Positions 15,060 to 41,045 of a stretch of DNA of 64,000 nt are shown one piece after another; position 1 is the first letter of the stretch, and every line of letters begins with the position of its first letter. A model generated the notes under the pieces. The model worked only from the letters and a program-made list of their open reading frames with translations. It had not been told where the DNA came from and did no database searches. The stretch spans positions 5,660 to 69,659 of the forward strand of contig JAIORA010000019.1 in NCBI GenBank assembly GCA_021108375.1. Reading direction: 5' to 3'. Origin of the DNA: Anaerohalosphaeraceae bacterium (GTDB taxonomy: Bacteria; Planctomycetota; Phycisphaerae; Sedimentisphaerales; UBA12454). The position numbers and the translations under genes are program-made.

Positions 15060-15520
15060 CAGCCGAGTGACCTACGTCGCCGAATAGTTTTTTGCATCAA
15101 CACCGACCTTGTCATTTCGACTGAAGCGCAGCGCAATGGAGAAATCTATCTTTTCATTTTTTTAAAATCTGTGTAATCTGCGTAATCAGTGTTTAAAGAA
15201 TTTATGTTTATTCGTCTTTCCGAATTATTTGCATCTTACATTTCGTCGTTTAGCCTTGCCATCACTATGGTGGGGTTGTTCATCATATGGTTTGTATCTT
15301 CCGCATCGCTGTTTAGCCCCCAAGCAGGCTTGGGGGTTCGTGCTTACATATTTTCTATCCCGTTCGCACAAGACTCTGTCATTCCCACGAAAGTGGGAAT
15401 CCATTTTTTACTTTTTTAAAATCTGTGTTAATCTGTGTCTAATTAAATAAATCGGTCTCGGCCAAAGGCCGATTCCTCAACTCAAAACTAAAGACTAAGA
15501 ACTCAAAACTAACAATCTCT
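15060..15520 (+). repeat. mosaic intergenic repeat zone 1 (forward orientation)
   Basis: Contains ttgtcatttcgactgaagcgcagcgcaatggagaaatct (identical to 17887-17925), AATCNGYG iterations, two TTAGCC hairpins, a tgtcattcccacgaaagtgggaatcc hairpin and the hairpin+ttcctcaactcaaaactaaagactaagaactcaaaacta module. Confidence 0.9.
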
Positions 15521-15586
15521 ATGGCTAAAAATTGAATTGCTCTATCTTTCCCACCGAGTTTTAATGGTTTTATTCCCTTTATTCTA

Positions 15587-15615
15587 TTGACCGGCACAGA
15601 GTCGATGTGTAGAAT
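15587..15615 (+). promoter_or_regulatory. sigma-70-like promoter for the DUF485-actP operon
   Basis: TTGACC, a 17-nt spacer, then TAGAAT, about 80 nt upstream of the DUF485 start. Confidence 0.55.
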
Positions 15616-15693
15616 TGTCAAAATTTTGTTTTTTAGAGAATGCGTTTTTAGCTCAATAATGCGGAAACGGTAGAATTTTAACAGGAGTTGGCG

Positions 15694-15987
15694 ATGTTAC
15701 ACGAACCGGCACAAAGTTGCGGCAAGGATTTTGCGGCAGGCTATAAGAGCAAATTGGGTATCAAATTATTCCTGGTTTACGCGGTTATCTACGCGGGATT
15801 TGTGGCGATAAATGTCATAAAGCCGGTGCTGATGGAAAAGGAAATCATATTCGGCCTTAATCTTGCCGTTGTTTACGGTTTTGGTCTGATTATATTTGCG
15901 CTACTGCTGGCGGTTTTTTATAACCACCTTTGTATCAAGCGTGAAAAAGCGGCAAATGGCAGCAATGCAAAAGGAGGGCAGGAGTAA
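15694..15987 (+). CDS. DUF485 domain membrane protein (YjcH-like)
   Basis: Two TM helices, ~97 aa, immediately upstream of and 1-nt overlapping an ActP-type symporter, as in yjcH-actP. The ATG at 15694 lies 6 nt after GGAG. The track start at 15688 is a TTG. Confidence 0.75.
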   Translation: MLHEPAQSCGKDFAAGYKSKLGIKLFLVYAVIYAGFVAINVIKPVLMEKEIIFGLNLAVVYGFGLIIFALLLAVFYNHLCIKREKAANGSNAKGGQE

Positions 15988-17927
15988 TGGCTATAGCAAT
16001 TTTCGCGGGTTTCGTAGCGTTTGTACTGTTTTTATCCTTTTACCTTTCCAAAAAGTCCAGCTCGGCCAGCGGATATTTCGCAGCGGGCGGACAGATACAC
16101 TGGAGTGTTAACGGCATTTCTTTTGCGGGTGATTATCTTTCAGCGGCCTCTTTTCTCGGCATCTGCGGTTTGATAGCGGTCGCCGGATATGACGGTTTCC
16201 TCTATTCGATTGGATACCTTGCCGGCTGGATTGTCGCGTTGTTTGTGGTTGCTGAGCCGATGAAGAGGCTGGGCAAGTACACCTTCACTGACGCTCTGGA
16301 TTCGACATTTGATTCCAAAGCGATTCAGCTTGTAGCGGGAATAAGTACGCTTGTCGTTTCGATATTCTACCTCATTCCACAGATGGTTGGTGCCGGCGTG
16401 CTGGTTACGCCGCTGCTGGGACTGCCCCACGCTGTTGGTGTAATTATGGTTGGAGCGATAGTTATAACCATCGTTGCCACAGCAGGTATGACCTCGACGA
16501 CTTACGTGCAGTTTTTGAAAGGCGGATTACTGATAATCTTTTCGACGGTGCTGGTTGTTGCGGTTTGCCATCGCGGATTGTCAACCGAGCCTGACCAGGG
16601 CGGGCAGGTAACCTGTTACGATTACAGAAAAATGGCAGTGTCGATAGTTGACGGGGCGGTTATTCCTGCCGATGAAAATTTTAAAGTTGTCGCAAGCAAT
16701 ATCAAGACGAATTCTGATGGCACGGTGGAAATCGATTATGTAAAACTTGATGAAACCGACAAATTTACATGGTGGAAAGTTCAGCATTTAGCTCAAGGCG
16801 GGGCCGAGCTTGTCGAAACCGCATCGGTGGCGATAAGCAGCGATGGCAAAAAAATTATTAACGGAGTCGAATCAGATGGCGGTTTGCAGGTGGGTAACGC
16901 TCAAAAGCTCCTCGGCAAGAGCGGCCCTGAGGCAAAGACGGGGCCGGTCGGGCCATTCAAATTTTTGTCCATTCTTGGCGATAAGGATACTGTAATAAGG
17001 CGATGGAAAAAATCAGCTCAGTTCAGCGATGGCGACGGTACTGTAACACTGTTCGCCCCGACAGAGACACCCGGCAACAAGATTATGCGGCCGGGCCTCA
17101 AGTTTAAGGTCGAAGGCAACAAGCTCGAACGGCTCGATTTCGTATCGCTTATGCTGGCACTTTTCTGCGGGACGGCAGCTTTGCCGCACATCCTGATTAG
17201 ATACTACACCGTGCCGAGTCCTGCCTGTGCGAGGAAGTCAACCATCGTGGCAATCGCGGCCATCGGATTTTTCTATATACTGACGCTCTATATGGGTCTT
17301 GGTGCGATGACCAATGGGGTTGTCAATCCTTTCAGCAATAATATGTCGGCACCGTTGTTGGCCAAGTCGTTCAATCCGATATTGTTTGCGATAATTTCAG
17401 CGATTGCTTTTGCGACAGTCCTTGGCACGGTCAGCGGACTTATCGTTGCCGCATCGGGTGCGGTTGCGCACGATTTGCTCGACAGATTTTACGACCTGAA
17501 ACTCAATGATAAGCAGAAGGTTGTCATCGGCAAGGCTGCGGCATTTACCATTGGGATGATAGCGATAATACTTGGCATAATTTTTCAGGGTATGAACGTT
17601 TCTTACCTTGTCGGATGGGCATTTGCGGTAGCGGCCTCGGCCAATCTGCCGGCAATTATTATGTTGCTGTTCTGGAAGCGTACCACTTCAGCAGGCATTG
17701 CCGCATCGATTACAGTTGGTATCATCGCGGCGGTTGGCCTCATTCTGATTTCGCCTGATATGTTCGAGAGGTACGGAATGTTGCGGTCGCAGGCTCCGAT
17801 ACCGATAAATCAGCCCGGCATCATTTCGATACCGCTGAGCTTTCTAACGCTGATAGTCGTTTCGCTTATGACAAAGAAAAAGGCCGTTGTCATTTCGACT
17901 GAAGCGCAGCGCAATGGAGAAATCTAA
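15987..17927 (+). CDS. actP: cation/acetate symporter ActP family (sodium:solute symporter) with enlarged extramembrane loop
   Basis: 646 aa. The SSS-family TM pattern is present, and GTAALPHILIRYYT matches the ActP GTAGLPHILMRFFT signature. There is a ~190-aa hydrophilic loop (aa ~195-383). The last 13 codons lie inside a repeat element. Confidence 0.85.
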   Translation: MAIAIFAGFVAFVLFLSFYLSKKSSSASGYFAAGGQIHWSVNGISFAGDYLSAASFLGICGLIAVAGYDGFLYSIGYLAGWIVALFVVAEPMKRLGKYTFTDALDSTFDSKAIQLVAGISTLVVSIFYLIPQMVGAGVLVTPLLGLPHAVGVIMVGAIVITIVATAGMTSTTYVQFLKGGLLIIFSTVLVVAVCHRGLSTEPDQGGQVTCYDYRKMAVSIVDGAVIPADENFKVVASNIKTNSDGTVEIDYVKLDETDKFTWWKVQHLAQGGAELVETASVAISSDGKKIINGVESDGGLQVGNAQKLLGKSGPEAKTGPVGPFKFLSILGDKDTVIRRWKKSAQFSDGDGTVTLFAPTETPGNKIMRPGLKFKVEGNKLERLDFVSLMLALFCGTAALPHILIRYYTVPSPACARKSTIVAIAAIGFFYILTLYMGLGAMTNGVVNPFSNNMSAPLLAKSFNPILFAIISAIAFATVLGTVSGLIVAASGAVAHDLLDRFYDLKLNDKQKVVIGKAAAFTIGMIAIILGIIFQGMNVSYLVGWAFAVAASANLPAIIMLLFWKRTTSAGIAASITVGIIAAVGLILISPDMFERYGMLRSQAPIPINQPGIISIPLSFLTLIVVSLMTKKKAVVISTEAQRNGEI

Positions 17928-18470
17928 GTTAGCCCGCCTTGTCGTTTAGCCTCGGCCGGTACGACCGAGTTGTCATTCCCGCTTTTGCGGGAATCAATTA
18001 GTTAGCCCCCTGATCCATCGGGGGGTTCACGCTTATGTATTTTCTATTGCGTTCACACTGTCGATTAGCCCCCTCATCACTATGAGGGGGTTCGTGCTTA
18101 CATATTGTTTCTCCCGCCCACTTCGCCATTTAGCCCTTGGGTCTTGTCCCAGGGGTACCTGCAAATTGTTTATCATTTTCCCATCGTATAGTAGCCGAGC
18201 CGCGGGAGCGACCGGAATACTCTTTGTCATTGCGAGCGCAGCGTGGCAATCTCGTCCCATCCGCACAAGACTTTGTCATTTCGACCAACGTGGAGAAATC
18301 TAAGTTAGCCCCACATTTACAAATGTGGGGTTGCAGTTTACTTTTATCTTTTCACTTTTTTTAAAAATCTGTGTTTATCAGTGTCCATCTGTGGCTAAAT
18401 AAATAAAACGGGTCTCGGCCATAAGGCCGATTCCTCAACTCAAAACTCAAAACTACTCTTCACCGTGGCA
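17887..18470 (+). repeat. mosaic intergenic repeat zone 2 (forward orientation)
   Basis: Tandem ~63-65-nt TTAGCC-hairpin units start at ~18002, 18065 and 18130. The zone also holds tgtcattgcgagcgcagcgtggcaatc, the tgtcatttcgaccaacgtggagaaatctaagttagccccacatttacaaatgtgggg unit, AATCNGYG iterations and a ttcctcaactcaaaac module. Confidence 0.9.
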
Positions 18471-18883
18471 ATCTCAAGTTCGCTCGCTCGACTTTTGGAT
18501 ATGGCAGAGAGTACCAGCTGTGCATTTCGATAGGTTATATCCTTGTCGATTCTCAGCAGAATACTTTTAGAAGTGGAATCGGAGGTGTTTTTCGGCAGGC
18601 TTGCGTTTATCATTTTCGTTAGCCAATTGGAAACATTTCGAGAATCGCCGGAGGTTTTTTTAAATTTTTCAGTTCCCGCCGCGAAAATTACGGCATCATC
18701 TTTTTCATCTTTAAAGATACTTATAGCCAAAGCAGGGGCGTTTTCAGATTTCGTATTAGCGAAATTACAGTTAGTCGGCAGAAGCAATTCGATTCTTTCA
18801 TCGTTGCTACCCTGATAGACTACTATCAGAAAAATTATCAGCAGAAACACTATATCGATAACTGGCGTGAGATTAACTTTCAT
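18440..18883 (-). CDS. exbD: ExbD/TolR family biopolymer transport protein
   Basis: MKVNLTPVIDIVFLLIIFLIVV is the ExbD/TolR signature. The start is ambiguous: ATG at 18883, or ATG at 18913, or TTG at 18934. The last ~7 codons and the stop lie in a repeat module. Confidence 0.85.
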   Translation of the reverse strand: MKVNLTPVIDIVFLLIIFLIVVYQGSNDERIELLLPTNCNFANTKSENAPALAISIFKDEKDDAVIFAAGTEKFKKTSGDSRNVSNWLTKMINASLPKNTSDSTSKSILLRIDKDITYRNAQLVLSAISKSRASELEIATVKSSFEF

Positions 18884-19742
18884 TTTTGCCCTGTCCGATA
18901 TTTGAATTGCCATCGACAGATTTTTTAATTTCAACGATAATCATTTCAGTTTCGACAGCAGCTTCGGCGACGATAGATTCGATATTATTTTTGAAAATGC
19001 TGTGAATACCCAGCGCCGGTATCGCTATCAGCAGTCCCCAGAAAGTAGTTACCAGTGCAACGCTTATGCCGTCAGCCATTTGTTCTGGCCTTGGCGACCC
19101 GCCGGAAATGACGATGCTGTTAAACAATTTTATCATTCCGAACACAGTGCCGAAAAGTCCAATCATTGGCGAGATATTGCCTATTATGCCGACCCATTCG
19201 ATTTTCCGAATCAGTCTTAGCGACTGTTCCTCCAGCGATTCACTCACGACGTTTTGCAGTTGTAGCTGGAGATGAATCTGCTCTGTCGAGCCAGCCATAT
19301 ACATCGCCGCTCTTGATACAGCGGCACTCACCATATCTTTGTTCTGCGATAAGTTCTCTGTGAGGTTGCCGCAGCCGTTATTTCTTATATGTTTTATAAT
19401 ACCCGCGCCGAAATTTTTCGGGAGCAGCTTTTTGCGTCTTATTATAAAGCAATAGCTCAGCGTAAGATGAATCATAACAATCGAGAGCGGCAGGAGAACG
19501 AACCAGACGATGGGCCCGCCGGAAAGGACAAACTGCGTGAAGAAAGTTTTTTCGCTTGCGACCTCGGCCGAACCGGACGATTTTTTCATCAGCATCCCGG
19601 CCAGCGCACAGACAAACGCCAGCGCGACGATTAAAGTTATGATTTTAATTTTGCTGTTTTTACTCAATCTCGATGTACCTTTCAATTTTTGGTTTGGCGA
19701 TAAGCGTAAAGCTGCCTTGCGAATTTTCAGCAATGTCGGCAA
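18873..19742 (-). CDS. exbB: MotA/TolQ/ExbB proton-channel family protein
   Basis: GNISPMIGLFGTVFGMI...ADGISVALVTTFWGLLIAIPA is the conserved TolQ/ExbB core. The ORF-track start at 19742 is a TTG that overlaps the upstream gene by 83 nt. The ATG at 19595 (MLMKKSS...) is an equally plausible start. Confidence 0.85.
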   Translation of the reverse strand: MPTLLKIRKAALRLSPNQKLKGTSRLSKNSKIKIITLIVALAFVCALAGMLMKKSSGSAEVASEKTFFTQFVLSGGPIVWFVLLPLSIVMIHLTLSYCFIIRRKKLLPKNFGAGIIKHIRNNGCGNLTENLSQNKDMVSAAVSRAAMYMAGSTEQIHLQLQLQNVVSESLEEQSLRLIRKIEWVGIIGNISPMIGLFGTVFGMIKLFNSIVISGGSPRPEQMADGISVALVTTFWGLLIAIPALGIHSIFKNNIESIVAEAAVETEMIIVEIKKSVDGNSNIGQGKNES

Positions 19743-20592
19743 GTATGACGCAATCAGAAGGTTTTGTCCAGAACCCGATGGTATTTATTATCGTTTTCGG
19801 GCAATATGTTTTTCTCTGTTTCTCAATCGCCTGCGAAAAATAATAACTCCCGGCCGTCTCCGTTAAATCGAATCCGTCGGTCAGCAGGTAGATGACTTCC
19901 GGGCTGTCCCCGAGAGAATCTTTTACGCTGAACGCCTTTTTCAGAGCATCTGGTGCGTTTGTTTTTCCGCCAGGGTTGACCGAGTCTATGAAGTTAAACG
20001 CCTTGGCTTTGGACACGGGGTAGGCACGCGTCATTTTGGCGGAGCTGAACTCGTAGAGTTGGTCGTTACCGAAAAAAATTATGCTAAAATACTGATTGGG
20101 CATGAGATTGTTTATAGAGCTTTTTAGCCTTTGTTTAACTCTTAAAAAGATGCCCTGCATACTGCCGGATGAGTCAACGACATAGCAGATTTTTTTCTTC
20201 TTGGCCTCTGCTCCAAAAAATTCTGTTGCTGCCATTGCCGTATTTTCCAGCGGTTCGTATGACGGGCTTGATGCGAGTGTTTTGATTGATTCGTTTATTG
20301 GAGTTGTGATTGCGGTTGCGTTGGCTTGTTCGGCGGCCAGAGCGGGGGGGCGATTAGCTGTTTCGGTAGCAGTGCTTTGCCTGCGAACTTTTGGTATTGG
20401 CAGCAGTTTCGGCGATTCTATCAGATTTTTAACCGCCTGTATTTTTGCTGATGGCTTGCTCTCTGTGGTCGGGCTGGGTTGATAATCTGATATCCCGAAA
20501 AGAGTTGCAGCCGCCAGCAGCACAGCGTGAAAACACAGCGAAATCGCGAGTGTCAAAATTGTCAACCGGACTTTTTTTTCTTTACTCGCCAT
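19660..20592 (-). CDS. membrane-anchored von Willebrand factor A (VWA) domain protein
   Basis: 310 aa with an N-terminal TM (LTILTLAISLCFHAVLLAAATLF) and a Pro/Ser/Thr/Ala-rich linker. The VWA domain has an intact MIDAS motif (VVDSSGSM ... GGKTN ... LLTDG). Confidence 0.8.
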   Translation of the reverse strand: MASKEKKVRLTILTLAISLCFHAVLLAAATLFGISDYQPSPTTESKPSAKIQAVKNLIESPKLLPIPKVRRQSTATETANRPPALAAEQANATAITTPINESIKTLASSPSYEPLENTAMAATEFFGAEAKKKKICYVVDSSGSMQGIFLRVKQRLKSSINNLMPNQYFSIIFFGNDQLYEFSSAKMTRAYPVSKAKAFNFIDSVNPGGKTNAPDALKKAFSVKDSLGDSPEVIYLLTDGFDLTETAGSYYFSQAIEKQRKTYCPKTIINTIGFWTKPSDCVILADIAENSQGSFTLIAKPKIERYIEIE

Positions 20593-20769
20593 TGCAATCT
20601 CAATTTTTCAAACCTTTCCCACCGTATAGTAGCCGAGCCGTGTGAGCGGCCGGAATACTTGTTGTCATTGCGAGCGCAGCGTGGCAATCCATTTTTCTGC
20701 ATCTTATTTTTTAATCAGTGCAATCTGCGAAATCAGCGTTTAATAATTTGTCATTGCGTCACAGCCGTA
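20593..20769 (+). repeat. mosaic intergenic repeat zone 3 (forward)
   Basis: ccgtatagtagccgagccgtgtgagcggccggaatacttgttgtcattgcgagcgcagcgtggcaatcc, followed by aatcagtgcaatctgcgaaatcagcg iterations. Confidence 0.85.
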
Positions 20770-21828
20770 CTATTCAACAGTCCTGACTTCGGATTCACCT
20801 GGCTCCATCATATTATAAACCTCTATCAACTCGCCGTTAAAAAGGCGGACGCAGCCTCGTGAGCTTTTTGTGCCTATGCTGGTTTCGTCTTTTGTTCCGT
20901 GCAGAGCTATGCCGGTTATACCCTTGGTTCTCGGGCCTGTTCCTTCAAGACCAATCCACCCTGAGCCGAGCGGATAATCGGGGTCGTTGGAATTATATGT
21001 CTGTCCGGTGTCGGGGTCTGTCCAGGTCGGCGAGATGAGCTTACCGCCAATTTCCGTCCGCCACCTGCCGATGGGTGTGTTCTTACCCTCCTTGCCGAGT
21101 CCGACGCGATACGTTTTGATATACATATTCTGCAAATACAAATCCATCGTAAATGACGAACAGTAAATAATGCAGTGGAAAGGCCCGTTAACGACCTTGA
21201 TATTCTGCCCAACCTGCAGCGCTCGCTCGTTAGTTATATTATTGATTCTCATTATAAATTCGTAAGGAATTTTGTGTCGTTTGGCAATCGCCGAAAGTAT
21301 ATCGCCGCTCTGCACTTTATATGTTGTGCAGAGTCCATCGCCCAAAAGTACCGTTCTGTCAAAGAGCCAGTCGCCTGCCAGCAGGGTCATTTGTTTTTTT
21401 ATATTGTTCCGCAATTCGCCGGTAAGCGGCATATTGAGAACGTCGTTAAGCGTATCCCTTGCCGCTATGATTCTGCCTGTTTTTATATCGTCTGCGGCAT
21501 CTTTAAGCAGAGCCATAACCCGCTCACCGACCTGCCCATTGGCATCAGAAACGATATTGCTGTATTCTGACGGGCTTTGCGTTTCGCTATCTTTTGGCCA
21601 GGCGGTGTTAAGTGGCTGGCTGTATCGTTCTGCCGTTTCAGTATATTCAGCAGGCTGTTTTACGGGTTGGGTTTGCGTTGCAACGGGAGCGGTCTCTGTT
21701 TGTTCTTTATTTTTAAGCGGATTGAAAAAGAAAAACAGTATCGCTGCGATGACCACCACAATAACGCCGTAATAAAAAAGGGCTTTGCGTCTTTGATTTC
21801 TGTAAGAGCTGTAACCTGATATTGCCAT
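20770..21828 (-). CDS. L,D-transpeptidase with LysM domain (YkuD family)
   Basis: N-terminal TM, a LysM domain (YKVQSGDILSAIAKRHKIPYEFIMRINNI...LQVGQNIKV) and the YkuD catalytic motif HGT...SRGCVRL. Confidence 0.85.
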   Translation of the reverse strand: MAISGYSSYRNQRRKALFYYGVIVVVIAAILFFFFNPLKNKEQTETAPVATQTQPVKQPAEYTETAERYSQPLNTAWPKDSETQSPSEYSNIVSDANGQVGERVMALLKDAADDIKTGRIIAARDTLNDVLNMPLTGELRNNIKKQMTLLAGDWLFDRTVLLGDGLCTTYKVQSGDILSAIAKRHKIPYEFIMRINNITNERALQVGQNIKVVNGPFHCIIYCSSFTMDLYLQNMYIKTYRVGLGKEGKNTPIGRWRTEIGGKLISPTWTDPDTGQTYNSNDPDYPLGSGWIGLEGTGPRTKGITGIALHGTKDETSIGTKSSRGCVRLFNGELIEVYNMMEPGESEVRTVE

Positions 21829-21962
21829 TTAGAGATTTCCTCGAAATATAGTTCTTATATTTTTAAAATCCGCGAAATCTGCGGTTAAAACAATTCGTAA
21901 TAATCTGTGTTAATCCGTGTCTAAAGTCTCTGTGAACTCTGTGTTCTCCGTGGCTATTTCCC
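21829..21962 (+). repeat. repeat zone 4: iterated AATCNGYG-type units (forward)
   Basis: aaaatccgcgaaatctgcggttaaaacaattcgtaataatctgtgttaatccgtgtctaaagtctctgtgaactctgtgttctccgtggcta. Confidence 0.8.
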
Positions 21963-22535
21963 TTAATCTTCGTTAAAGCGCAGAACTTCTTTATCCGTAA
22001 CTATCATATCGACCGGCTGGTCGTGTTCAAATGTCGGAACTTTTTCAACTACCTGTTCTGAAAAAGCAAATCCGCATCGGACAGCTCTCAGATTTTTGTT
22101 CTGAAAAAATCTGTCATAATACGACCCGCCTCTGCCGAGCCTGTTGCCTTTGTCATCAAAGGCCAGTCCGGGAGTTATAACCAAATCGATATCGTTCATC
22201 GGAACCGGCACTCCGGTAACAGGGTTTCTCAATCCGCCAGCTTCGGTGGCGAGTCCGGTTTCCAGCGAATTTATTTCGACCGGAATCATATGCCTCTGCT
22301 GCCAGGACACTTTAGGCACAGCAATAGTTTTCGCGTGCTGCCACGAGTAAAGTATAAAAGGGGTAGTATCAGTTTCCTTAGGCAGAGACAAAAATGCCAT
22401 TATGATATTTGCGTTTTGAAATTCCTCGGACTCAATCAGTTTTTTACAGGCCATCTGACTCTTATCGAGAATTTGCTGCGGACTCATATTATAAAGTTTA
22501 GCCCGAATTTGCTGCCTGAGCTGCTGCTTATCCAT
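21963..22535 (-). CDS. 5-formyltetrahydrofolate cyclo-ligase
   Basis: 190 aa. The family motif is NRLGRGGSYYDRF, and the N-terminal segment is KQQLRQQIRAKL. Confidence 0.85.
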   Translation of the reverse strand: MDKQQLRQQIRAKLYNMSPQQILDKSQMACKKLIESEEFQNANIIMAFLSLPKETDTTPFILYSWQHAKTIAVPKVSWQQRHMIPVEINSLETGLATEAGGLRNPVTGVPVPMNDIDLVITPGLAFDDKGNRLGRGGSYYDRFFQNKNLRAVRCGFAFSEQVVEKVPTFEHDQPVDMIVTDKEVLRFNED

Positions 22536-22577
22536 TTATCACCCTTCCGATGGACTCCAAACTACTTTAATCGGTTT

Positions 22578-23939
22578 TTACGTATCCGAATCGCTATCTT
22601 TTATCAGAATTTCAAGCTTTTGTAAATAATCGTTGATAATTTTTTCTCTTCCCCGGTTTACGGGCTTGTAATACTGGCCCGCCTTTTTGCCTGGCAGGTA
22701 TTCCTGGGCTACAAAACCCTCAGGCCAATCGTGGGGATACTTGTATTCTGTCCCAAAACCTTCCTTTTTTGCCCCTGCATAGTGAGAATCTTTCAGATGT
22801 CTGGGTACGCCGATAGTTCTTTTGTTTTTGGTATCTGCCAGTGCCGCCGCTATTGCCTTGGCACTGGCGTTCGATTTGGGAGCGCAGGCTACGTAAATTG
22901 CCGCCTGTGCAAGGGGTAGTTGTGCCTCTGGAAACCCCACAAACTCAGCTATTTGCACCGCTGCCGCTGCCAATATGGTTGCCGCCGGGTCTGCGTTGCC
23001 GACATCCTCCGCCGCACAAATTGCGATTCTGCGTGCGATAAACCTTGGGTCTTCGCCGGAAGCGATAAGCCTTGCCAGCCAGTAAACGGCCGCATCCGGG
23101 TCTGAGCCGCGCATACTCTTTTGGAGTGCGCTCGCAAGGTCGTAATGGCTGTCGCCGGACGGGTCGAAATGTATATGCTTTTGACTGATGGATTCTTTGG
23201 CGATTTCGAGGTCGAATTTTATGGTCTTTTCGCCGGTGTTTTTCTGGCTCATAACGCCCACTTCCAGCGCGGTAAGTGCTTTGCGTCCGTCGCCATCGCT
23301 CATTATCGCGACATAGGCCAGAGCTTCCTGGCTGGTTTGAACGTCAAGACTGCCGAGTCCGCGAACCCTGTCGCTGAGGGCCTTTTTCATAAGCTCGATT
23401 ATATCGTCTTTGCTCAGCGGGCTGAACCGGAAGATGGTACTGCGGGAAATCAATGGCGAGTTGATAGCGAAATATGGATTTTCGGTCGTCGCGCCGACAA
23501 GGGTTATTATCCCCGTTTCGACATCGTTTAAAAGCACATCCTGCTGAGCCTTGTTAAAACGGTGGATTTCGTCAATGAACAATACCGTTTTGGTTTTCGT
23601 GGTGATTAGCAGGTCTTTGGCCTTGGCCGCGATTGAGCGGATGTCGCTGACCGTCGCGGCGGGCGCACTCAAATAACGAAATTTTGCGTTTATCGTATTT
23701 GCGATTACCGCCGCCAGCGAGGTTTTTCCCACTCCGGGCGGGCCGTAGAAAATTACGCTGGAAAGGCTCTGCGCGTCGAGCATTCTCCGCAGGAGTTTGC
23801 CGGGGCCGATGAAATCTCGTTGCCCGAAAAAGTCATCGAGTGTTCTCGGCCTCATCCGTGCCGCCAACGGCCCGTCCGAAGCGAGCCGAGCGTTTTCAGC
23901 TTCGGCAAAAAGGGATTTGTCGTCGTTTTTGTTGAGCAT
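22578..23939 (-). CDS. rarA: replication-associated recombination protein A (RarA/MgsA AAA+ ATPase)
   Basis: GPPGVGKTSLA Walker A, LFIDEIHRFNK, GATTENPYF and the C-terminal MgsA domain (DAAVYWLARL...GEDP). I prefer the ATG at 23939. The ORF-track start at 24005 adds 22 aa. Confidence 0.9.
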   Translation of the reverse strand: MLNKNDDKSLFAEAENARLASDGPLAARMRPRTLDDFFGQRDFIGPGKLLRRMLDAQSLSSVIFYGPPGVGKTSLAAVIANTINAKFRYLSAPAATVSDIRSIAAKAKDLLITTKTKTVLFIDEIHRFNKAQQDVLLNDVETGIITLVGATTENPYFAINSPLISRSTIFRFSPLSKDDIIELMKKALSDRVRGLGSLDVQTSQEALAYVAIMSDGDGRKALTALEVGVMSQKNTGEKTIKFDLEIAKESISQKHIHFDPSGDSHYDLASALQKSMRGSDPDAAVYWLARLIASGEDPRFIARRIAICAAEDVGNADPAATILAAAAVQIAEFVGFPEAQLPLAQAAIYVACAPKSNASAKAIAAALADTKNKRTIGVPRHLKDSHYAGAKKEGFGTEYKYPHDWPEGFVAQEYLPGKKAGQYYKPVNRGREKIINDYLQKLEILIKDSDSDT

Positions 23940-24005
23940 TCCAGCATTATAACGCCTTAGCTGGATATTTGTCGAGATTCTTTTATTGTTGCGGCAATCT
24001 ATCAC

Positions 24006-25387: not shown

Positions 25388-25599
25388 TTACTGTAATCCT
25401 TGCTTATACAAGATTATTGCGGGTTTCTATATATACTCTTTTCAACATTTATATCGGGGATTTATGGCAGGGGGTTTTGCAAAAAAGGCCATTTACGAAA
25501 GAATTTTTTCAGGAATTTGCCGAAAACCTTGAAAAGCTGATATTTCTGAAAAACCGGCATTTTTTCCGTTAAATCACCTGTTACAGTGGCAAAATACGC

Positions 25600-33489: not shown

Positions 33490-33975
33490 CCACAAAGGCA
33501 CAAAAATTTTAGCCACAGATGGACACTGATTAACACGGATTTTTACGAATTATTTTAACCGCGGATTTCGCTGATTACGCGGATTTTAAAAAAGTAAAAA
33601 GATAAAAAATGGATACCCGCTTTCGCGGGTATGACAAAGATGAGATTGCCGCGCTGCGCTCGCAATGACAAGGTCGGTGTGGATGCGAAAAACTATTCGT
33701 AAAACAACCCCGTCATAGTAATGGCAGGGCTAAATGTTCCGGCGACTTACGTCGCTCGGCTTCTATGCAATGGGAAAAGGGTAAAAAATACGAAAGCACG
33801 AACCCTGCCATAGTGATGGCAGGGCTAATCAGCGATGGGAATGGGATAGATAGTATGCAGCAACCCCCAGGACAAGACCTGGGGGCTAAATGGTGATGCG
33901 GACGGGATAATCAATATATAGATACCCGCAGGGCAAGACCCATTCGGCTTCGCTCAGGGCAGGCTCTGCGGGCTA
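33490..33975 (-). repeat. mosaic intergenic repeat zone 9 (reverse orientation)
   Basis: agccacagatggacactgattaacacggat..., ggatacccgctttcgcgggtatgaca, gattgccgcgctgcgctcgcaatgaca and four GGCTAA-terminated hairpins (…ggcagggctaa, …cctgggggctaa, …ctctgcgggctaa). Confidence 0.9.
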
Positions 33976-34004
33976 AAAACAAAAAATATAAAAGAAAGAT
34001 TGCT

Positions 34005-34877: not shown

Positions 34878-35035
34878 ATAAAAGTAAAAAAACAGACACG
34901 GATTTACACGGATTATTTAAACACTGATTACGCAGATTGCACTGATTAAAAAAGTGAAAAGATAAAAGCAAACTGCAACCCCACATTTGTAAATGTGGGG
35001 CTAACTTAACTACAACCCCCTGCAGTGCAGGGGGC
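34878..35035 (-). repeat. repeat zone 10 (reverse orientation)
   Basis: cacggatttacacggatt...cactgattacgcagattgcactgatt iterations, then caaccccacatttgtaaatgtggggctaa and caaccccctgcagtgcagggggctaa hairpins. Confidence 0.9.
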
Positions 35036-35864
35036 TAAAGGCGATTCGGATTGGAACAGGAATTTGTGTAAATTTCTTGATGTAGATATTATAAAGGCCA
35101 ACCTCGATGCGAAACTGCCCGGCAGAAAAATCCTCGTCTATAAATCCACCTCAAGCACAAATGATGTCGCGGTTGAGTATGCTAAGGCCGGTAAGATAAA
35201 TAACGGGCTGGCGGTTTTTGCGGAGCGGCAGAGCAGCGGCAGGGGGCGAAGAGGTAATAAATGGCTCGGCGGAGATGGTAAGAGCTTGCTGTTTTCGGTA
35301 TTGCTGTTTGATATTGCTCTGGCTCTGGAGATGGTGACGCTTGTCTCGGCGGTGGCAGTTGCTCAGGCGATAGGAGAATTTAGCCCGGTGCGGTGCGGTA
35401 TTAAATGGCCTAACGATATAATTGTCGGCACAAAGAAATTAGGGGGTATATTGTTGGAGTCCTTCAGTCAAAATGGGAAGGGCAATAATTATATTATAGG
35501 AGTAGGGATTAACTGTTGTCAGAGCCAGGCCGATTTTGATGAGGAAATTGCAGAAATCGCAACGAGTATAAAAATTGAGAGCGGGCAAAATTGCGACAGG
35601 AACTTTCTCGCAGCGAAACTGATAAATAATCTTGAAAAATGGCTGGAAGCCGCAAAGGCTGACCCGCAGCAAGTGCTTGTGAGGTGGCAGCAGATGAGCA
35701 GACTTCTCGGCAGGAGGGTTCGGCTTGAGTGCGACCGTAAAGAGTTTGTCGGAATCTGCACGGGAATTGACCCTGTTGAGGGACTTGTTTTGCAGCTTGA
35801 AAGGGGCGGGGTGAGACTGTTTAACGCATCGCATACGACAGTTATTGCTTATGGGAACCTCTAA
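35025..35864 (+). CDS. birA: biotin--[acetyl-CoA-carboxylase] ligase
   Basis: The GRGRRGNKW signature, KWPNDI and a C-terminal BPL_C-like segment. The GTG start at 35025 lies inside a repeat hairpin, so the true start is uncertain. An in-frame TTG near 35064 is possible. Confidence 0.85.
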   Translation: MQGAKGDSDWNRNLCKFLDVDIIKANLDAKLPGRKILVYKSTSSTNDVAVEYAKAGKINNGLAVFAERQSSGRGRRGNKWLGGDGKSLLFSVLLFDIALALEMVTLVSAVAVAQAIGEFSPVRCGIKWPNDIIVGTKKLGGILLESFSQNGKGNNYIIGVGINCCQSQADFDEEIAEIATSIKIESGQNCDRNFLAAKLINNLEKWLEAAKADPQQVLVRWQQMSRLLGRRVRLECDRKEFVGICTGIDPVEGLVLQLERGGVRLFNASHTTVIAYGNL

Positions 35865-36455
35865 AAATTCAGCCACAGAGTTTTTAGACACAGATTAACA
35901 CAGATTTTCACAGATTATTTTAACCGCGGATTTCGCGGATTACACTGATTTTAAAAAAGTAAAAAGATGGATTCCCGCTCTCGCGGGAATGACAAAAAAA
36001 TAGTTATGAGTTTTGAGTCCTTAGTTTTGAGTTGAGGAATCCCGATAAATCGGGATGGACTTTTAAACACTGATTTCGCAGATTGTACTGATTTAAAAAA
36101 ACAAATAGCCACAGAGAACACAGAGAGTTACAGAGGGAAAAATATAAAGGATTGAGATTGCCACGGCGATTTTCAATCGTCTCGCAATGACAAAAAGTAT
36201 TCCGGCGACTTACGTCGCTCGGCTTCTATACGATGGGAAAATGATAAACAATTTGCAGGTACCCATAGGGCAAGACCCATTCGGCTTCGCTCAGGGCAGG
36301 CTCTACGGGCTAATGGCAAATGTAAGATGCAAACCATTCGCAAAACAAAACCCCCTCATAGTGATGAGGGGGCTAAACGGTTCGGTCGTGCCGACTGAGG
36401 CTAAACACAATGACAACGACCTTATCCGGCAGCTTCCGCTGCTCGGCTGCTAACG
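35865..36455 (-). repeat. mosaic intergenic repeat zone 11 (reverse orientation)
   Basis: CRCNGATT iterations, ggattcccgctctcgcgggaatgaca, agttttgagtccttagttttgagttgaggaatcccgataaatcggga, gattgccacgg...ctcgcaatgaca, several GGCTAA hairpins and ccggcagcttccgctgctcggctgcta. Confidence 0.9.
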
Positions 36456-38402: not shown

Positions 38403-38465
38403 CAAAACTTGAGAGGTTTTAAATAGTTTAATCTATTGCTGTAATAAAGTTTGAGAGGTTTTAGA

Positions 38466-38756
38466 TTGCCCCGAACCATTTTTGAAGATGAAATTGAAAT
38501 AAAGAATTCCAACGGACTTCATATGCGTCCGGCAATGCAGTTTGTGGATTTGGCCAGCCAGTATGAAAGCGATATTCAGGTGAGTAACGGCTCAACCAAA
38601 GTTGATGGCAAGAGCATAATGCAGATGGCGATGCTGGCGGCAACGGTTGGGACGAAACTTCAGATAAAAGCGTCCGGCTCTGATGGCGGTGAAGCAATAA
38701 AGGCTCTTAAGGAACTGGTTGAGGTACAGTTGTTTGATGAGTCTCATACCATTTAG
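38466..38756 (+). CDS. ptsH: HPr family phosphocarrier protein (HPr/NPr)
   Basis: GLHMRPA (the His-15 site) and GKSIMQMAMLAA (the Ser-46 region). There is no in-frame ATG. The TTG at 38466 follows GAGAGG by 7 nt, and the TTG at 38451 is an alternative start. Confidence 0.85.
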   Translation: MPRTIFEDEIEIKNSNGLHMRPAMQFVDLASQYESDIQVSNGSTKVDGKSIMQMAMLAATVGTKLQIKASGSDGGEAIKALKELVEVQLFDESHTI

Positions 38757-38900
38757 GGTAATGTGCGTTGCGGACGGGATAGGACATATGTAAACGCGAA
38801 CCCCCCTAAAGCGTGAGAGGAGGCTAATCGGCGATGTGGACGGGATAGAAAATTTGCAAGTACCCGCAGGGCAAGACCTACGGGCTAAACAAACTCGCAG
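38757..38900 (-). repeat. repeat zone 12 (reverse orientation) inside the ptsH-ptsI spacer
   Basis: gaacccccctaaagcgtgagaggaggctaa and gtacccgcagggcaagacctacgggctaa hairpins, with gggatag.a.a..tg linkers. Confidence 0.85.
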
Positions 38901-38924
38901 GGAAGTTAAAACGAGAAAGATGTA

Positions 38925-40658
38925 ATGGAGATTAAAAAAGGGATAGCTGTTTCGCCGGGCATTGCGATAGCAAAGGCCCTTGTGATTGACGCAGAAGACT
39001 ACCGAATACCGAGACGGTCTATTCTGGCTTCGGCCAAGGTTGGCGAAGTTAAAAAAGTGCGAGAAGCCTTTCGCAAAGCAGTGGCTGAATTGGAAAAGAC
39101 CGATTCCCAAAGTCTTGCGGAAAGTAAAATAAAGGACATCTTTGCAGTTCATCTGCGTTTTTTGCGCGACAGAAGTCTACGAAAGAAAATTACCGACCTT
39201 GTATATAACGACCTCCTGACCGCTGAGTATGCAGTCTCAACAACACTTCGTGATATCGCTAATCACTTCGCGTCGGTTCAGGATGCCTACATAAGTGAAC
39301 GTGCCGCTGATATTTATGATATTGAAAAGCGTTTGCTTAAACATCTTCTCGGCAAAAAGAGAGAGGATGCTGAGCATATCAGTTATGAGGTTGTGGTAAT
39401 TGCTCACGAGCTTAGTCCTACGCAGACAGCCAGCTTTGACCGTTCTTTTATTAAAGGTTTTGCCACCGATGCTGGTGGCAGAACGAGTCATACCGCTATC
39501 GTTGCCAGGTCGTTGGGCATACCGGCAGTTGTCGGCCTTGAAAATGTTACGAGTAACGTCAACCCGGCGGCAATGGTTATTATCGATGGCAATCGCGGCG
39601 TTGTAGTTATAGACCCTGACGCGGCTACGCTTAAACAGTACGAAGAATATGCTATCGAATTTGTCAGGCTTGAGCACGAGCTGGATTCTCTGCGAGATTT
39701 GGACGCAATTACCAGAGACGGTGTTGAGATTAAACTGCTGGGTAATATCGAATTTCCTTCCGAAGCTGAAATGATTATCGATAAAGGCGGACACGGGATA
39801 GGTCTTTATCGAACGGAATTTTTGTATCTTAACAGTGAAACCGAGCCGACCGAAAAAGACCACTATGACGCTTACAGTCAGGTAGTTAAGACTCTCGGAA
39901 ATATGCCTGTAATAATAAGGACGATGGACTTAGGGGCTGATAAATATACTCAAAGCAGAAGATTTGTCAGGGAGCCGAACCCGTTTCTCGGATTGCGTTC
40001 AATAAGGTTCTGTTTGCAGAATCTTATGATGTTTAAGACGCAGCTGCGTGCGATTTTGCGGGCATCGGTACTGGGTGATTTGAGAATAATGTTTCCGCTT
40101 GTCAGTAGTCTGCACGAATTGCGTCAGGCGAAGATGATTTTGCGGGATGTAATGGAAGACCTCGACGAAGATAGCATAGCTTATAATGCTGATGTTCCAA
40201 TCGGTATTATGATAGAGACACCATCCGCTGCGCTTACGGCAAATATACTTGCAACTGAAAGTGATTTTTTCAGTATCGGAACGAACGACCTGATTCAATA
40301 TACACTTGCGGTTGACCGTGGAAACGAGAGAGTGTCAACCTTGTATTCCGGGGCTGACCCGGCTGTATTGCAATTGCTGCGGAGTGTTATTCACGATGCC
40401 AGCAAGGCTCGTATAAGTGTAAGTCTATGCGGAGAAATGGCATCGGAGCCTGAATATGTGATGATGCTGCTTGGGCTGGGCTTTAGAACCTTTTCGCTTG
40501 CTACGCCTATGATACCGGAAATTAAGAAGCTCGTAAGGTCGGTAACGATTGAATCGTGTAATGCCCTTGCTCGCAAAGTACTCGGTATGAATTCCGAGCG
40601 GGAAGTAACTAACTATATCAGGAATGCGGCGATTAAAGTTCTGCCGGAAGTTTTCTAA
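38925..40658 (+). CDS. ptsI: phosphoenolpyruvate-protein phosphotransferase (PTS enzyme I)
   Basis: 577 aa. The active-site region is GGRTSHTAIVARSLGIPAVVG. The PEP-utilising TIM-barrel motifs are GIGLYRTEFL and SIGTNDLIQY. There is no N-terminal GAF domain. Confidence 0.95.
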   Translation: MEIKKGIAVSPGIAIAKALVIDAEDYRIPRRSILASAKVGEVKKVREAFRKAVAELEKTDSQSLAESKIKDIFAVHLRFLRDRSLRKKITDLVYNDLLTAEYAVSTTLRDIANHFASVQDAYISERAADIYDIEKRLLKHLLGKKREDAEHISYEVVVIAHELSPTQTASFDRSFIKGFATDAGGRTSHTAIVARSLGIPAVVGLENVTSNVNPAAMVIIDGNRGVVVIDPDAATLKQYEEYAIEFVRLEHELDSLRDLDAITRDGVEIKLLGNIEFPSEAEMIIDKGGHGIGLYRTEFLYLNSETEPTEKDHYDAYSQVVKTLGNMPVIIRTMDLGADKYTQSRRFVREPNPFLGLRSIRFCLQNLMMFKTQLRAILRASVLGDLRIMFPLVSSLHELRQAKMILRDVMEDLDEDSIAYNADVPIGIMIETPSAALTANILATESDFFSIGTNDLIQYTLAVDRGNERVSTLYSGADPAVLQLLRSVIHDASKARISVSLCGEMASEPEYVMMLLGLGFRTFSLATPMIPEIKKLVRSVTIESCNALARKVLGMNSEREVTNYIRNAAIKVLPEVF

Positions 40659-41045
40659 GAAACTGATTAACTAAAAGATAGTCACAGAGATACATAAATA
40701 GTTTTGAGTTTAGGTCTCGGCCTAACGGGCGAAATGATTTTATTTTTTTGGACACGAATTAACACGGATTGCACAGATTAAAAAACAAGATACAAAAAAA
40801 TGGATTCCCGCTTTCGCGGGAATGACAAAAAAAATTAGACACGGATTAACACGGATTGTTTTAACCGCGGATTTCGCGGATTTAAAAAAAAGTGAGAAAG
40901 CAAAGTAAACTGTAACCCCCTGATGAATCAGGGGGCTAACTAACTCGGTCGTGCCGGCCGAGGCTAAACAAATCCGCAGGGCAAGACCCGTTCGGCCTTG
41001 CTCAGGGCGGGCTCTACGGGCTAATTAGTGATGGGAAAGGGATGG
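40659..41045 (-). repeat. mosaic intergenic repeat zone 13 (reverse orientation)
   Basis: agttttgagtttaggtctcggcctaacgggcg, cacgaattaacacggattgcacagatt, ggattcccgctttcgcgggaatgaca, taaccccctgatgaatcagggggctaa, cggtcgtgccggccgaggctaa and ccgcagggcaagacccgttcgg...ctctacgggctaa. Confidence 0.9.

Follow-up and report, generated by a model that had tools for sequence, protein, structure and literature searches.

The intergenic gaps of a 64-kb chromosome piece from an uncultured Phycisphaerae (Sedimentisphaerales-like) bacterium are occupied by a mosaic of short repeats, in which about 70 tagged hairpins, together with linker, decamer and heptamer modules, fill 16 gaps. We refer to the whole 64-kb stretch as the window, to the four unpaired nucleotides at the 5' foot of each hairpin as its tag, and to the mosaics as M1 to M16. 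The mosaics represent a genuine and very dense system of repetitive extragenic palindromes (REPs) of an already known kind. At a probability of roughly 60%, we consider that the gaps hold arrays of REP-type extragenic palindromes of at least three tag classes, which would have spread in trans and been filtered by selection.

According to self-BLAST, the repeats within the window total 4,364 bases, lying in the gaps between 13.2 and 41.1 kb with only a few bases overlapping gene ends; family copies outside 15060-41045 occur at 2461-2547, 13255-13303 and 47096-47180. Class A comprises 31 hairpins tagged TTAG, class B 22 hairpins tagged TGTC or CGTC (eight B1, nine B2 and five B3), class E nine hairpins in which an xAG tag is followed by CCGAG...CGG, and class D eight modules made of a hairpin plus heptamers, while class C consists of about 18 arrays of 9-10-nt AATCNGYGNN units. 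Subclass B1 corresponds to exactly eight TGTCATWCCCRC-N4-GYGGGWATC hairpins. Counting only anchored perfect hairpins (stem of at least 7, loop of 3-8, directly after the tag) and comparing them with 100 dinucleotide-preserving shuffles, we observed 12 TTAG-anchored hairpins against a mean of 0.2, and eight TGTC-anchored hairpins against a mean of 0.22, the shuffle maximum being 2 overall. An earlier note on this DNA had described about 30 hairpins and eight TGTCAT hairpins, spread over at least 14 intergenic regions assembled from common modules; its counts agree well with the present ones, and every copy that it quoted was recovered in place or within a few bases. The module ttagccccacattt..aaatgtggggtt stands at 18305 (+), 29392 (+) and 34977-35004 (-), with a TTAA-tag variant at 24113 (+); ttagcccctgggtcttgtccca.gggt at 18130, 24020 and 25643 (all +); ttagccccctga.. 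at 18002 (+), 25803 (+) and 40914-40939 (-); ttagccccctcatcactatgagggggtt at 18065 (+) and 36349-36376 (-); and ttagccctgccat.actatggcagggtt at 25734 (+) and at 31422-31449, 33706-33733 and 33801-33828 (all -).

Stem sequences vary among the hairpins, and they do so in a compensated manner. In an alignment of 22 class A hairpins, 95.4% of the stem cells were paired, as compared to 69.1% after shuffling and 40-57% with slid partners; changes on both sides were found at six of the nine pairs (54 cells), the covariation score was reached in none of 500 shuffles, and the only fixed pairs were the three outer C-G ones. The B1 hairpins have perfect 8-bp stems with two compensated positions (ATT/AAT versus ATA/TAT, and CCGC/GCGG versus CCAC/GTGG). 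The proposal that the stems differ and yet stay complementary is thus supported by compensatory changes in both A and B1.

A typical unit consists of a tag and hairpin of 24-28 nt followed by a linker of about 36 nt (t.c.tgc.ta.a-tt.t.tatcccg.tc.ca......), which is conserved in the alignment and is directly adjoined by the next tag, be it TTAG (A), TGTC (B) or TAGNAG (E). This succession of hairpin, conserved linker and adjoining tag accounts for the periodicity of 63-65 nt at 18002, 18065 and 18130, in agreement with the tandem units and conserved linker described previously; Tandem Repeats Finder does not call these units, because their hairpins differ. The usual order within a mosaic runs from A, E and B hairpins, through a hairpin with a T-run and C arrays, to a D module. 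The latter is built of a variable hairpin, then TTCCTCAAC, and then AACTCAA-type heptamers, so that its opposite strand presents a hairpin followed by a T-rich run. Moreover, modules can be nested: a 26-nt piece (gccctgagcgaagccgaatggg...) is found inside four A copies, its reverse complement resembles a 27-nt piece in two C arrays (ccttcgRctgcgYtcaggacaagYctg), and a 14-nt gaagcgcagcgcaa piece lies inside two B3 copies.

Copy number was evaluated in the marine-sediment metagenome run X1, which contains 94% of the words sampled from the window; unique genes have there a depth of 51-62x and unique DNA one of about 55-60x, and Logan contigs break at every mosaic. Summed depth was 15,000-27,000 for B1, a figure to be read as an upper bound since this hairpin may also be carried by other members of the community, 11,700 for A of the ccccacattt type and 2,100 for A of the ccctgccat type, 11,000 for E, 6,000-11,000 for C, 7,800 for D, 5,500 for B3 and 3,700 for B2, that is, 40-470 times the unique depth. 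In addition, dozens of alternative module junctions were found, each at 44-88x, corresponding to one locus of the same genome, and these show further stem variants (e.g., ttagccctctgatttatcagggggttg). High module depth combined with junctions at unique depth therefore indicates a combinatorial family that is genome-wide, with tens to hundreds of copies per module. Confinement of the copies to this region, which the earlier note had named as a result that would speak against the REP/RAYT idea, is thus not what is seen.

The uvrB-nadC order is retained in eight related metagenome-assembled genomes (MAGs), in seven of which birA follows nadC. The uvrB-nadC spacers of the relatives measure 0-204 nt (all except L003, with approximately 1.4 kb of other sequence), as compared to the 515-nt mosaic here, and their nadC-birA spacers measure 15-177 nt, as compared to a 147-nt mosaic here. 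No modules were seen in the uvrB-nadC-birA spacers of these eight MAGs, and the presence/absence comparison suggested earlier thus sets modules here against none there. Elsewhere, L002 carries B1 and B2 just upstream of uvrB, in the order and orientation of the window; L004 has B1 and B2 upstream of uvrB together with a TTAG hairpin; and L007 (15270-16230) possesses a mosaic of its own, with four TTAGCCCC hairpins plus TGTC and GTAG hairpins. Repeat density in the window organism is far above that of any relative examined. TTAG-CCC hairpins recur in a few B1-bearing metagenome contigs (L100, L114, L163 and L198), and the A, E and linker parts of the query gave no significant match in PLSDB.

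One of the subclasses has already been described in other bacteria. REPs have been sorted into GTAG- and CGTC-tagged super-families, and CGTC-1, which is the dRS3 repeat, was defined by a CGTC or TGTC tag, an 8-bp stem starting with AT, a 4-nt loop and a CCA tail (Di Nocera et al. 2013, PMC3733652). B1 is a CGTC-1 hairpin, the dRS3 of Neisseria: it has the same tag (TGTC, a listed variant), stem, loop, tail and core (GTCATWCCCRC-N4-GYGGGWATC), with four of the eight copies matching ATTCCC-N8-GGGAAT exactly, four carrying the compensated ATACCC..GGGTAT, and seven ending in the CCA tail. The 26-nt core is invariant among the window, two Phycisphaerae MAGs and N. gonorrhoeae. In PLSDB, B1 was matched at 40 or more places per record in N. 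gonorrhoeae, where these copies are the dRS3 hairpins of the neisserial mosaic arrays, and also in Legionella, Azospirillum, sphingomonads and Photobacterium, and the pattern is present in at least 120 metagenome contigs of 28-70% GC, B1 being therefore pan-bacterial; the lineage-specific modules were found in none of the B1-bearing contigs among the at least 120 matches listed. Furthermore, B2 matches CGTC-type hairpins in Novosphingobium and Psychrobacter. CGTC repeats had been reported in five phyla, Planctomycetes not among them (PMC3733652). With respect to tags, B1, B2 and B3 carry TGTC, a listed CGTC variant, A carries TTAG and E carries xAG, with GTAG found only at 13270. Classes A and E look like variants of the GTAG super-family, as all keep 'AG' before a CC... 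stem, and a change of the first base is not among the listed GTAG tag variants (PMC3733652).

We then turned to orientation, as the modules point one way between 13.2 and 30.2 kb and the opposite way between 31.2 and 41.1 kb, a rule with which 127 of the 131 inter-gap high-scoring segment pairs (HSPs) comply. Within arrays, the hairpins stand head-to-tail, rather than alternating or inverted, and the tag strand is antisense to the genes in nine of the 11 gaps between co-directional genes. A replication origin or terminus at the 30.2-31.2 kb switch is not supported, since plus-strand GC skew, once the gene-strand effect is allowed for, is non-negative on both sides and shows no sign change. Local copy-and-paste as the sole cause of the blocks was rejected, since copies taken from different blocks resemble each other as closely as copies from one block do (for example, 94.7% between 25690-25803 and 33664-33777, inverted). 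Therefore, neither replication nor local copying explains the orientation blocks. They do match the direction of the genes.

The same polarity is seen in terminator-like signals. Consensus scans returned such sites on the tag strand of seven of the eight B1 hairpins, of all four ccccacattt-type A hairpins and of two other A hairpins (the A subtypes concerned being ccccacattt, ccccctga and ccccctcat); B1 hairpins are followed by CCATTTTTT, and several A hairpins by a T-rich run. In D modules it is the opposite strand that reads hairpin plus TTTTATTT. Across six mosaics without D that lie between co-directional genes (M4, M5, M6, M10, M11 and M13, located below), there were no terminator-like sites on the sense strand and five on the antisense strand, and these include the mosaics inside uvrB-nadC-birA and ptsH-ptsI. 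D, on the other hand, faces the sense transcript directly after dapF, birA, ptsI and ExbD. Two mosaics are 'sense' exceptions to the orientation rule, namely M2, after a response regulator-histidine kinase pair, and M8, after a sigma-factor gene; in both, B1 or A with its T-run sits at what looks like the end of a transcription unit. This distribution suggests that insertions may be retained only if their orientation spares the operon a premature termination, and that mosaics at operon ends may serve as bidirectional terminators. The earlier note had offered terminator-like modules as an alternative; that idea stands insofar as three module types combine a hairpin with a T-run in a defined polarity, and their activity as terminators is so far a matter of consensus match.

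Taking these results together, the hairpins would be non-autonomous single-strand elements that depend, for copying and recombination, on an enzyme acting in trans from another locus of the genome; recombination or slippage among the numerous copies would enlarge and rearrange the arrays, and selection would filter the site and orientation of the modules that survive. Both the mobilising enzyme and any terminator or RNA-stability activity are things that we infer. For the TTAG and xAG classes, the leading candidate enzyme would be one of the HUH Y1 type resembling REP-associated tyrosine transposases (RAYTs). B1 and one A subtype with a downstream T-run would be putative terminators on the tag strand, and D a putative terminator on the other. 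In those gaps between co-directional genes whose mosaic has no sense-facing terminator, the T-run hairpins are antisense to the genes; at apparent ends of transcription units, a terminator-like module faces the sense transcript.

A link to RAYTs would be plausible. In E. coli RayT, A3 and G4 of GTAG select the cleavage site (PMC3479197); the TTAG and xAG tags retain exactly this pair of bases, and, like the GTAGCC REPs of planctomycetes, they adjoin a CC stem. In planctomycetes, inverted GTAGCC hairpins (AGTAGCCRTCAC...GTGATGA) stand on either side of RAYT genes (PF01797, HUH motif present) at L019 5200-6300 (Fuerstiella), L205 1-960 and L206 100-1200, and the three loci are classical REPtrons. 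The L019 RAYT has 789 homologues at E <=1e-10; among the closest 120 of these 789, the few with a named source come from Planctomycetaceae, Pirellulaceae or Planctomycetota, and no Phycisphaerae RAYT with flanking TTAG hairpins was found among the 120.

Several observations weigh against this interpretation, beginning with the enzyme. The Pfam scans of all large open reading frames (ORFs) revealed no transposase, integrase or HUH protein in the 64-kb window, and a tblastn search with E. coli RayT gave no match in it even at E up to 10, confirming what had been noticed previously. Neither RAYT nor any other transposase was found in 699 kb around 120 other B1 copies in metagenome loci, a search of low power given that each RAYT of a genome corresponds to hundreds of hairpin copies. 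Moreover, any change among the four GTAG bases abolished cleavage by E. coli RayT (PMC3479197), and the A tag starts with T. As to the CGTC-type hairpins, the literature is split on RAYT involvement: CGTC repeats were reported without an associated transposase (PMC3733652), while Bertels and Rainey assigned the dRS3 21-mer to a Group 2 RAYT as its REPIN. In N. gonorrhoeae (L204 560-1220, NZ_CP119142.1), the immediate flanks of the RAYT gene are GTAG-type hairpins (GTAGGTCGGATAC.., GTAGGCCGGATTC.. and GTAGGTCGGATTC..), and dRS3/CGTC-1 copies lie 150-270 nt upstream; with GTAG-type immediate flanks and dRS3 only nearby, the link between dRS3 and RAYT is therefore ambiguous. In addition, REPINs, that is, inverted pairs, are the proposed mobile unit and head-to-tail dimers are rare in published REP families, and the hairpins here are nearly all head-to-tail singlets. 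Non-Watson-Crick cells on the TTAG strand of A stems comprise nine of the G.U type versus three others, which, in copies that are not independent, hints only weakly at folding of the tag strand; the whole mosaic folds better than shuffles on both strands (z = -3.5 and -5.2), and folding energy therefore cannot identify the active one. Finally, the terminator signal used here is a consensus match only, and a single D module out of eight passes the strict rule of the tool, the others having a 4-6-nt spacer between hairpin and TTTTATTT.

It is also possible, though clearly less probable, that the modules are mainly transcription elements (polar terminators, antisense insulators or stabilisers of mRNA 3' ends) which are under selection and spread by homologous recombination, gene conversion or slippage, with no dedicated enzyme. 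The consistent polarity of the hairpin and T-run signatures would be explained in this way, as would the position of D, directly after last genes (dapF, birA, ptsI and ExbD) and absent inside gene strings, and an orientation that tracks gene direction in the nine gaps out of 11 mentioned above. Neighbouring gaps also share long, near-identical blocks (161 nt at 96% between 31321-31481 and 33605-33765), and CGTC repeats have no known transposase. However, the modules exist in hundreds of copies and in many different junction contexts, and conserved unpaired tags are a hallmark of HUH-processed hairpins. Most A, E and B2 hairpins lack a T-run and so cannot be terminators. Moreover, the 26-nt B1 is found in genomes of 28-70% GC, which host-specific evolution of terminators would not give, and relatives manage without modules at the same loci.

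More doubtful is the idea that the head-to-tail arrays are built by a direction-controlled process, which would add units of 'hairpin plus 36-nt linker' with interchangeable hairpins of several tag classes, would act on the CGTC/dRS3 hairpin too, and would leave orientation blocks that reflect the mechanism itself (the strand of replication or transcription) rather than only selection. If that were true, this genome would be the richest natural substrate for finding the enzyme and for explaining the growth of NIME-type arrays, NIMEs being the neisserial intergenic mosaic elements.

Repeated recombination with incoming DNA is, in our view, an unlikely origin of the arrays. It would build on the identity of B1 with dRS3, which is the integration site of neisserial filamentous phages and the proposed recombinase site in the building of NIME arrays (PMC1797815), and on the strong difference between the arrays here and those at syntenic positions in relatives. 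Yet B1 accounts for only eight of the approximately 70 hairpins and, unlike dRS3 in NIMEs, does not bracket every unit, no recombinase, phage or insertion sequence is present in the window, and the flanks are conserved housekeeping genes, not genes for variable surface proteins. It is very improbable that the modules are fragments of ordinary miniature inverted-repeat transposable elements (MITEs) moved by a DDE transposase: a real MITE with 37-nt terminal inverted repeats does lie nearby (28020-28190), and C-like decamers form the inverted ends of a MITE-like element in Thiodictyon, but modules A to E have neither terminal inverted repeats nor target-site duplications, the copies within a gap are all co-oriented, and the units are 25-65-nt hairpins with single-strand tags. 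An integron-like cassette array with attC-type hairpins, or an assembly artefact, can be set aside as next to impossible, for the GTTAGCC-like hairpin starts between genes are only superficially attC-like, attC sites are longer than the 24-28-nt hairpins here, the housekeeping genes in conserved synteny rule the integron out, no integrase is present, and the same modules recur across independent contigs of consistent depth as well as in independent MAGs.

Returning to the mosaics themselves, those with the tag strand on the plus strand begin with M1 (13255-13303), a divergent gap holding a TGTCAT remnant and an E hairpin with a true GTAG tag, ggtagccgggcagcggaagctgccggataa. M2 (15060-15530) separates the histidine kinase gene (+) from the DUF485/SSF genes (+), and comprises E (15060-15086), a long B3 (15110-15147, tgtcatttcgac[tgaagcgcagcgcaa]tggagaaatct), a T-run, C, two A hairpins (15250-15277, ttagccttgccatcactatggtggggtt, with three G.T wobbles on the plus strand, and 15313-15338, ttagcccccaagcaggcttgggggtt), a linker, B1 (15377-15402, tgtcattcccacgaaagtgggaatcc) followed by ATTTTTT as its T-run, C, and D (15451-15512). 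M3 (17888-18474) lies between the convergent genes for SSF (+) and ExbD (-); it starts with a long B3 (17888-17925) over the last SSF codons and stop, coding for the C-terminus of that ORF, and continues with a truncated A (17929-17947), A (17946-17971, ttagcctcggccggtacgaccgagtt), B1 (17971-17996, tgtcattcccgcttttgcgggaatca), three A hairpins each followed by a linker (18002-18027, ttagccccctgatccatcggggggtt; 18065-18092, ttagccccctcatcactatgagggggtt; 18130-18157, ttagcccttgggtcttgtcccaggggta), E (18192-18219), B2 (18225-18251, tgtcattgcgagcgcagcgtggcaatc), B3 (18274-18301, tgtcatttcgaccaacgtggagaaatct), A (18305-18332, ttagccccacatttacaaatgtggggtt) with a T-rich run that is terminator-like on the plus strand, C, and D (18409-18457), which overlaps the ExbD stop codon. 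Three mosaics are placed between minus-strand genes: M4 (20615-20750), with E (20630-20657), B2 (20663-20689), a T-run and C; M5 (21850-21960), with C decamer arrays only; and M6 (24006-24250), with A (24020-24047, ttagcccctgggtcttgtcccaggggtg), a linker, B3 (24083-24110), the A hairpin with the TTAA-tag variant (24113-24140, ttaaccccacatttgtaaatgtggggtt), a T-rich run and C with the 27-nt nested insert.

In the divergent gap between GGDEF (-) and MerR (+) genes, M7 (25604-26110) presents B2 with a longer apical stem (25604-25638, tgtcattgcgaggcggtttcatcgccgcggcaatc), A (25643-25670, ttagcccctgggtcttgtcccaagggta), a linker, E (25705-25732), A (25734-25761, ttagccctgccattactatggcagggtt), a spacer, A (25803-25828, ttagccccttgattcatcagggggtt), a truncated B2, D (25862-25925), C, B1 (25986-26011, tgtcatacccgcgcaagcgggtatcc) with a T-run, and C. 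After the sigma-factor gene (+), M8a (29175-29731) holds a long A (29192-29245), a ttagcccgtag..ctgcggg hairpin with a 26-nt internal segment, agtctgccctgagcgaagccgaatgg, then a linker, A (29298-29325, ttagcccgtaggtcttgccctgcgggta), a linker, B3 (29361-29388), A (29392-29419, ttagccccacatttgtaaatgtggggtt) with a T-rich run, C, B1 (29545-29570, tgtcatacccgcgcaggcgggtatcc) with a T-run, C, and D (29669-29731). M8b (30079-30219), upstream of dapF (+), consists of C and D (30158-30219), and is 90% identical to 29621-29730.

The mosaics from the dapF-uvrB gap up to the one after ptsI have the tag on the minus strand, and are given here in plus-strand order. M9 (31175-31482, dapF-uvrB) contains D (31178-31240), which overlaps the dapF stop and is terminator-like on the plus strand directly after that gene, C with a nested insert, a T-run, B1 (31327-31352), B2 (31360-31386), a spacer, A (31422-31449, ttagccctggcatcactatggcagggtt) and E (31451-31478). 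M10 (33502-33990, uvrB-nadC) contains C, a T-run, B1 (33611-33636), B2 (33644-33670), a spacer, A (33706-33733, ttagccctgccattactatgacggggtt), E (33735-33762), a linker, A (33801-33828, ttagccctgccatcactatggcagggtt), a linker, A (33862-33889, ttagcccccaggtcttgtcctgggggtt), a linker, and a long A (33923-33976) with the 26-nt internal segment. M11 (34886-35040, nadC-birA) has C, a T-run and two A hairpins (34977-35004, ttagccccacatttacaaatgtggggtt, which precedes the T-rich run on its own strand, and 35014-35038, ttagccccctgcactgcagggggtt, overlapping the predicted birA start). M12 (35848-36452), after birA, shows C, a T-run, B1 (35969-35994), D (35999-36061), C, B2 with a longer apical stem (36156-36192), E (36198-36225), a linker, a long A (36260-36313) with the 26-nt segment, a linker, A (36349-36376, ttagccccctcatcactatgagggggtt), a degenerate A (36379-36404, ttagcctcagtcggcacgaccgaacc) and E (36422-36449). 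M13 (38757-38895), between ptsH (HPr, 38451-38756) and ptsI, has a linker, A (38799-38827, ttagcctcctctcacgctttaggggggtt), a linker and A (38861-38888, ttagcccgtaggtcttgccctgcgggta), without T-run or D. M14 (40690-41045), after ptsI, starts with a shortened D (40699-40738) directly after the gene and proceeds through C, a T-run, B1 (40802-40827), C, a T-run, A (40914-40939, ttagccccctgattcatcagggggtt) belonging to that T-rich run, A (40942-40967, ttagcctcggccggcacgaccgagtt), a long A with internal segment (40972-41024) and a linker. In all four minus-strand mosaics with B1 (M9, M10, M12 and M14), the T-run follows this hairpin on the tag strand. At the edges, M15 (2461-2547, -) lies between convergent genes and includes a solo MITE end (2461-2481), B2 (2478-2509) and an A-like hairpin, cagccccctgaaaaaccgggggggttg, while M16 (47096-47180) is the only inverted (head-to-head, REPIN-like) pair; both of its members are B2 hairpins, one at 47096-47132 (-), the other, which bears a true CGTC tag, at 47148-47180 (+).

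The repeats reach into some of the genes. The last 13 codons and stop of the SSF ORF are inside a B3 repeat (17888-17927), with 40 nt that are 100% identical to 15109-15148; the stop codons of ExbD and dapF are located within D heptamers; and there is an overlap between an A hairpin and the predicted start of birA. Gene ends are therefore redefined by the repeats. Moreover, the intercistronic gap between ptsH and ptsI (38757-38924) holds a mosaic of A hairpins and linkers only, a position comparable to that of the malE-malF REPs of E. coli, and this mosaic may affect the expression of ptsH relative to ptsI.

All large ORFs of the window are ordinary genes according to Pfam scans, and they include type II secretion and pilus genes, a two-component pair, DUF485/SSF, ExbBD, RarA, GGDEF, sigma-70, DapF, UvrB, NadC, BirA, HPF, EIIA, HPr, PtsI, RNase G, ETF, acyl-CoA dehydrogenase and HisRS. 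The genes flanking the mosaics are housekeeping genes in conserved synteny (uvrB-nadC-birA, ptsH-ptsI, dapF and exbBD), and the closest UvrB proteins, of 72-81% identity, come from Phycisphaerae and Sedimentisphaerales MAGs. The Rfam 15 covariance models gave nothing at gathering score anywhere in the window, and the sole match at E up to 1 between 13 and 42 kb was a chance-level S15 leader inside the histidine kinase gene (E 0.55). No tRNAs were found in the window, and a literature search with peptide-like readings of the repeats (FRGND and AFAGMT) gave nothing relevant.

Other repeats are present in the window as well. The MITE of approximately 170 nt (28020-28190) lies between ParA-like and sigma-factor genes, is bounded by TTAA, and has terminal inverted repeats of about 37 nt (TTAAGGGTAGCTCTAATAATTGCTTTTGAGCGACAAG ... 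CTTGTTTGCCAAAATGAATTTTTAGAGGTTCCCTTAA) that are about 80% alike. In X1, its ends have a depth of 10,000-11,000 against 60 for unique sequence, that is, about 180 copies, and its interior about 2,000; shorter deletion forms and a tandem junction were seen, as was the solo end at 2461-2481. The non-coding segment between two mosaic blocks (29750-30078) includes A-rich tandems (a 21-nt unit, CAAAAACGGCAAAAAACCGAC, and a 19-nt unit, each repeated 2.8 times), a 38-nt unit present twice (29895-29932 and 29949-29986) and cgtaaaataaggaSttaY, likewise present twice; its depth in X1 is 300-900, and it is therefore a moderately repeated element itself. The 103-aa ORF at 29598-29909 had no Pfam match. Within the histidine-kinase gene, a perfect 16-bp inverted repeat with a 10-nt loop (GGCAAGCTCAAGAAAA..TTTTCTTGAGCTTGCC, 14421-14462) is in frame (GKLKKKQRYFLELAK), inside the part of the protein that the HisKA domain model covers. 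With a depth of 51 in X1 it is single-copy and therefore does not belong to the repeat families.

REP-type hairpins count among the commonest non-coding elements in bacterial genomes, and their multiplication and role are settled only for a few proteobacterial GTAG families. The present results widen the host range of CGTC-1/dRS3, and of the NIME-like design, to an uncultured Phycisphaerae lineage whose arrays are of unusual content, in which CGTC-1 stands beside a TTAG-tagged class, in hundreds of copies and in strictly one-directional arrays. This lineage thus offers a comparative system for the enzyme of CGTC hairpins, for the growth of mosaics, and for whether termination polarity sets orientation. 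In practical terms, the repeats break short-read assemblies of the lineage at nearly every operon boundary, and they create spurious ORFs and altered gene ends (e.g., the SSF C-terminus).

Comparison with known systems places these arrays close to several of them. They are compensated stem-loops of 20-40 bp, extragenic, dispersed and of high copy number, as tagged REPs are. With the GTAG REPs (Nunvar 2010; Bertels & Rainey 2011; Messing 2012) they have in common an imperfect hairpin of 8-9 bp whose 5' foot carries four unpaired nucleotides as a tag, numerous subfamilies of stems in which changes are compensated, G.T pairing on the strand of the tag, an extragenic location and high copy number; the tag here, however, is TTAG or xAG, not GTAG or a listed variant of it. 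Published CGTC-1 repeats are mostly head-to-head dimers, while here they are singlets with one orientation per array, and a minority component among other hairpin classes. REPINs (inverted REP pairs less than about 130 bp apart) are not found except at 47096-47180, a pair of CGTC type, 127 of the 131 HSPs fitting one orientation within each array. The bacterial interspersed mosaic elements (BIMEs) known from enterobacteria are likewise mosaics of REP hairpins and a few conserved short motifs in intergenic positions, including intercistronic ones in operons, but REPs alternate in orientation within them, whereas the hairpins here all point the same way in an array, and the sequences are unrelated. 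Being head-to-tail, the arrays fail BIME and REPIN geometry. The REP/BIME-like reading with which the earlier note began is therefore retained in its REP half, as the palindromes are tagged, extragenic, compensated and dispersed and B1 is a described REP, and given up as to BIME or REPIN arrangement.

Among other modular repeats, BOX elements of S. pneumoniae and the short tandemly repeated repetitive (STRR) heptamers of cyanobacteria also consist of modular boxes in variable copy number. BOX elements have no sequence relation to the modules here, while for the heptamers of D there is a match in a cyanobacterium, Kovacikia, within a region of heptamer repeats; heptamer and decamer arrays are only accessory modules here. 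C decamer arrays have look-alikes in Anabaena and Thiodictyon. On a plasmid of Candidatus Thiodictyon syntrophicum (L208 290-440), C-like decamers (AAAATCTGTGTTCATCTGTGTTCATCTGTGG) form an inverted pair about 90 nt apart, adjoining a GTAG REPIN, and this pair looks like the ends of a MITE; module C therefore has cross-phylum relatives in a different arrangement.

Finally, NIMEs are RS repeat units flanked on both sides by dRS3, not seen outside Neisseria (Bentley et al. 2007, PMC1797815) and linked to genes for variable surface proteins (PMC1797815). Both systems form long intergenic arrays in which GC-rich hairpins of 20-26 nt alternate with lower-GC spacer repeats of many families, array content differs between related genomes in both, and the dRS3 hairpin is present here too. 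Nevertheless, an array contains only 0-2 dRS3-type hairpins, the majority of units have TTAG or xAG hairpins at their borders, and the adjacent genes have housekeeping functions rather than coding for variable surface proteins; since the units are not bounded by dRS3, the arrays fail the strict definition of a NIME. Overall, what is new with regard to all these systems is the TTAG-tagged class, the presence of CGTC-1/dRS3 in Planctomycetota, and strictly head-to-tail, NIME-like arrays whose orientation follows transcription.

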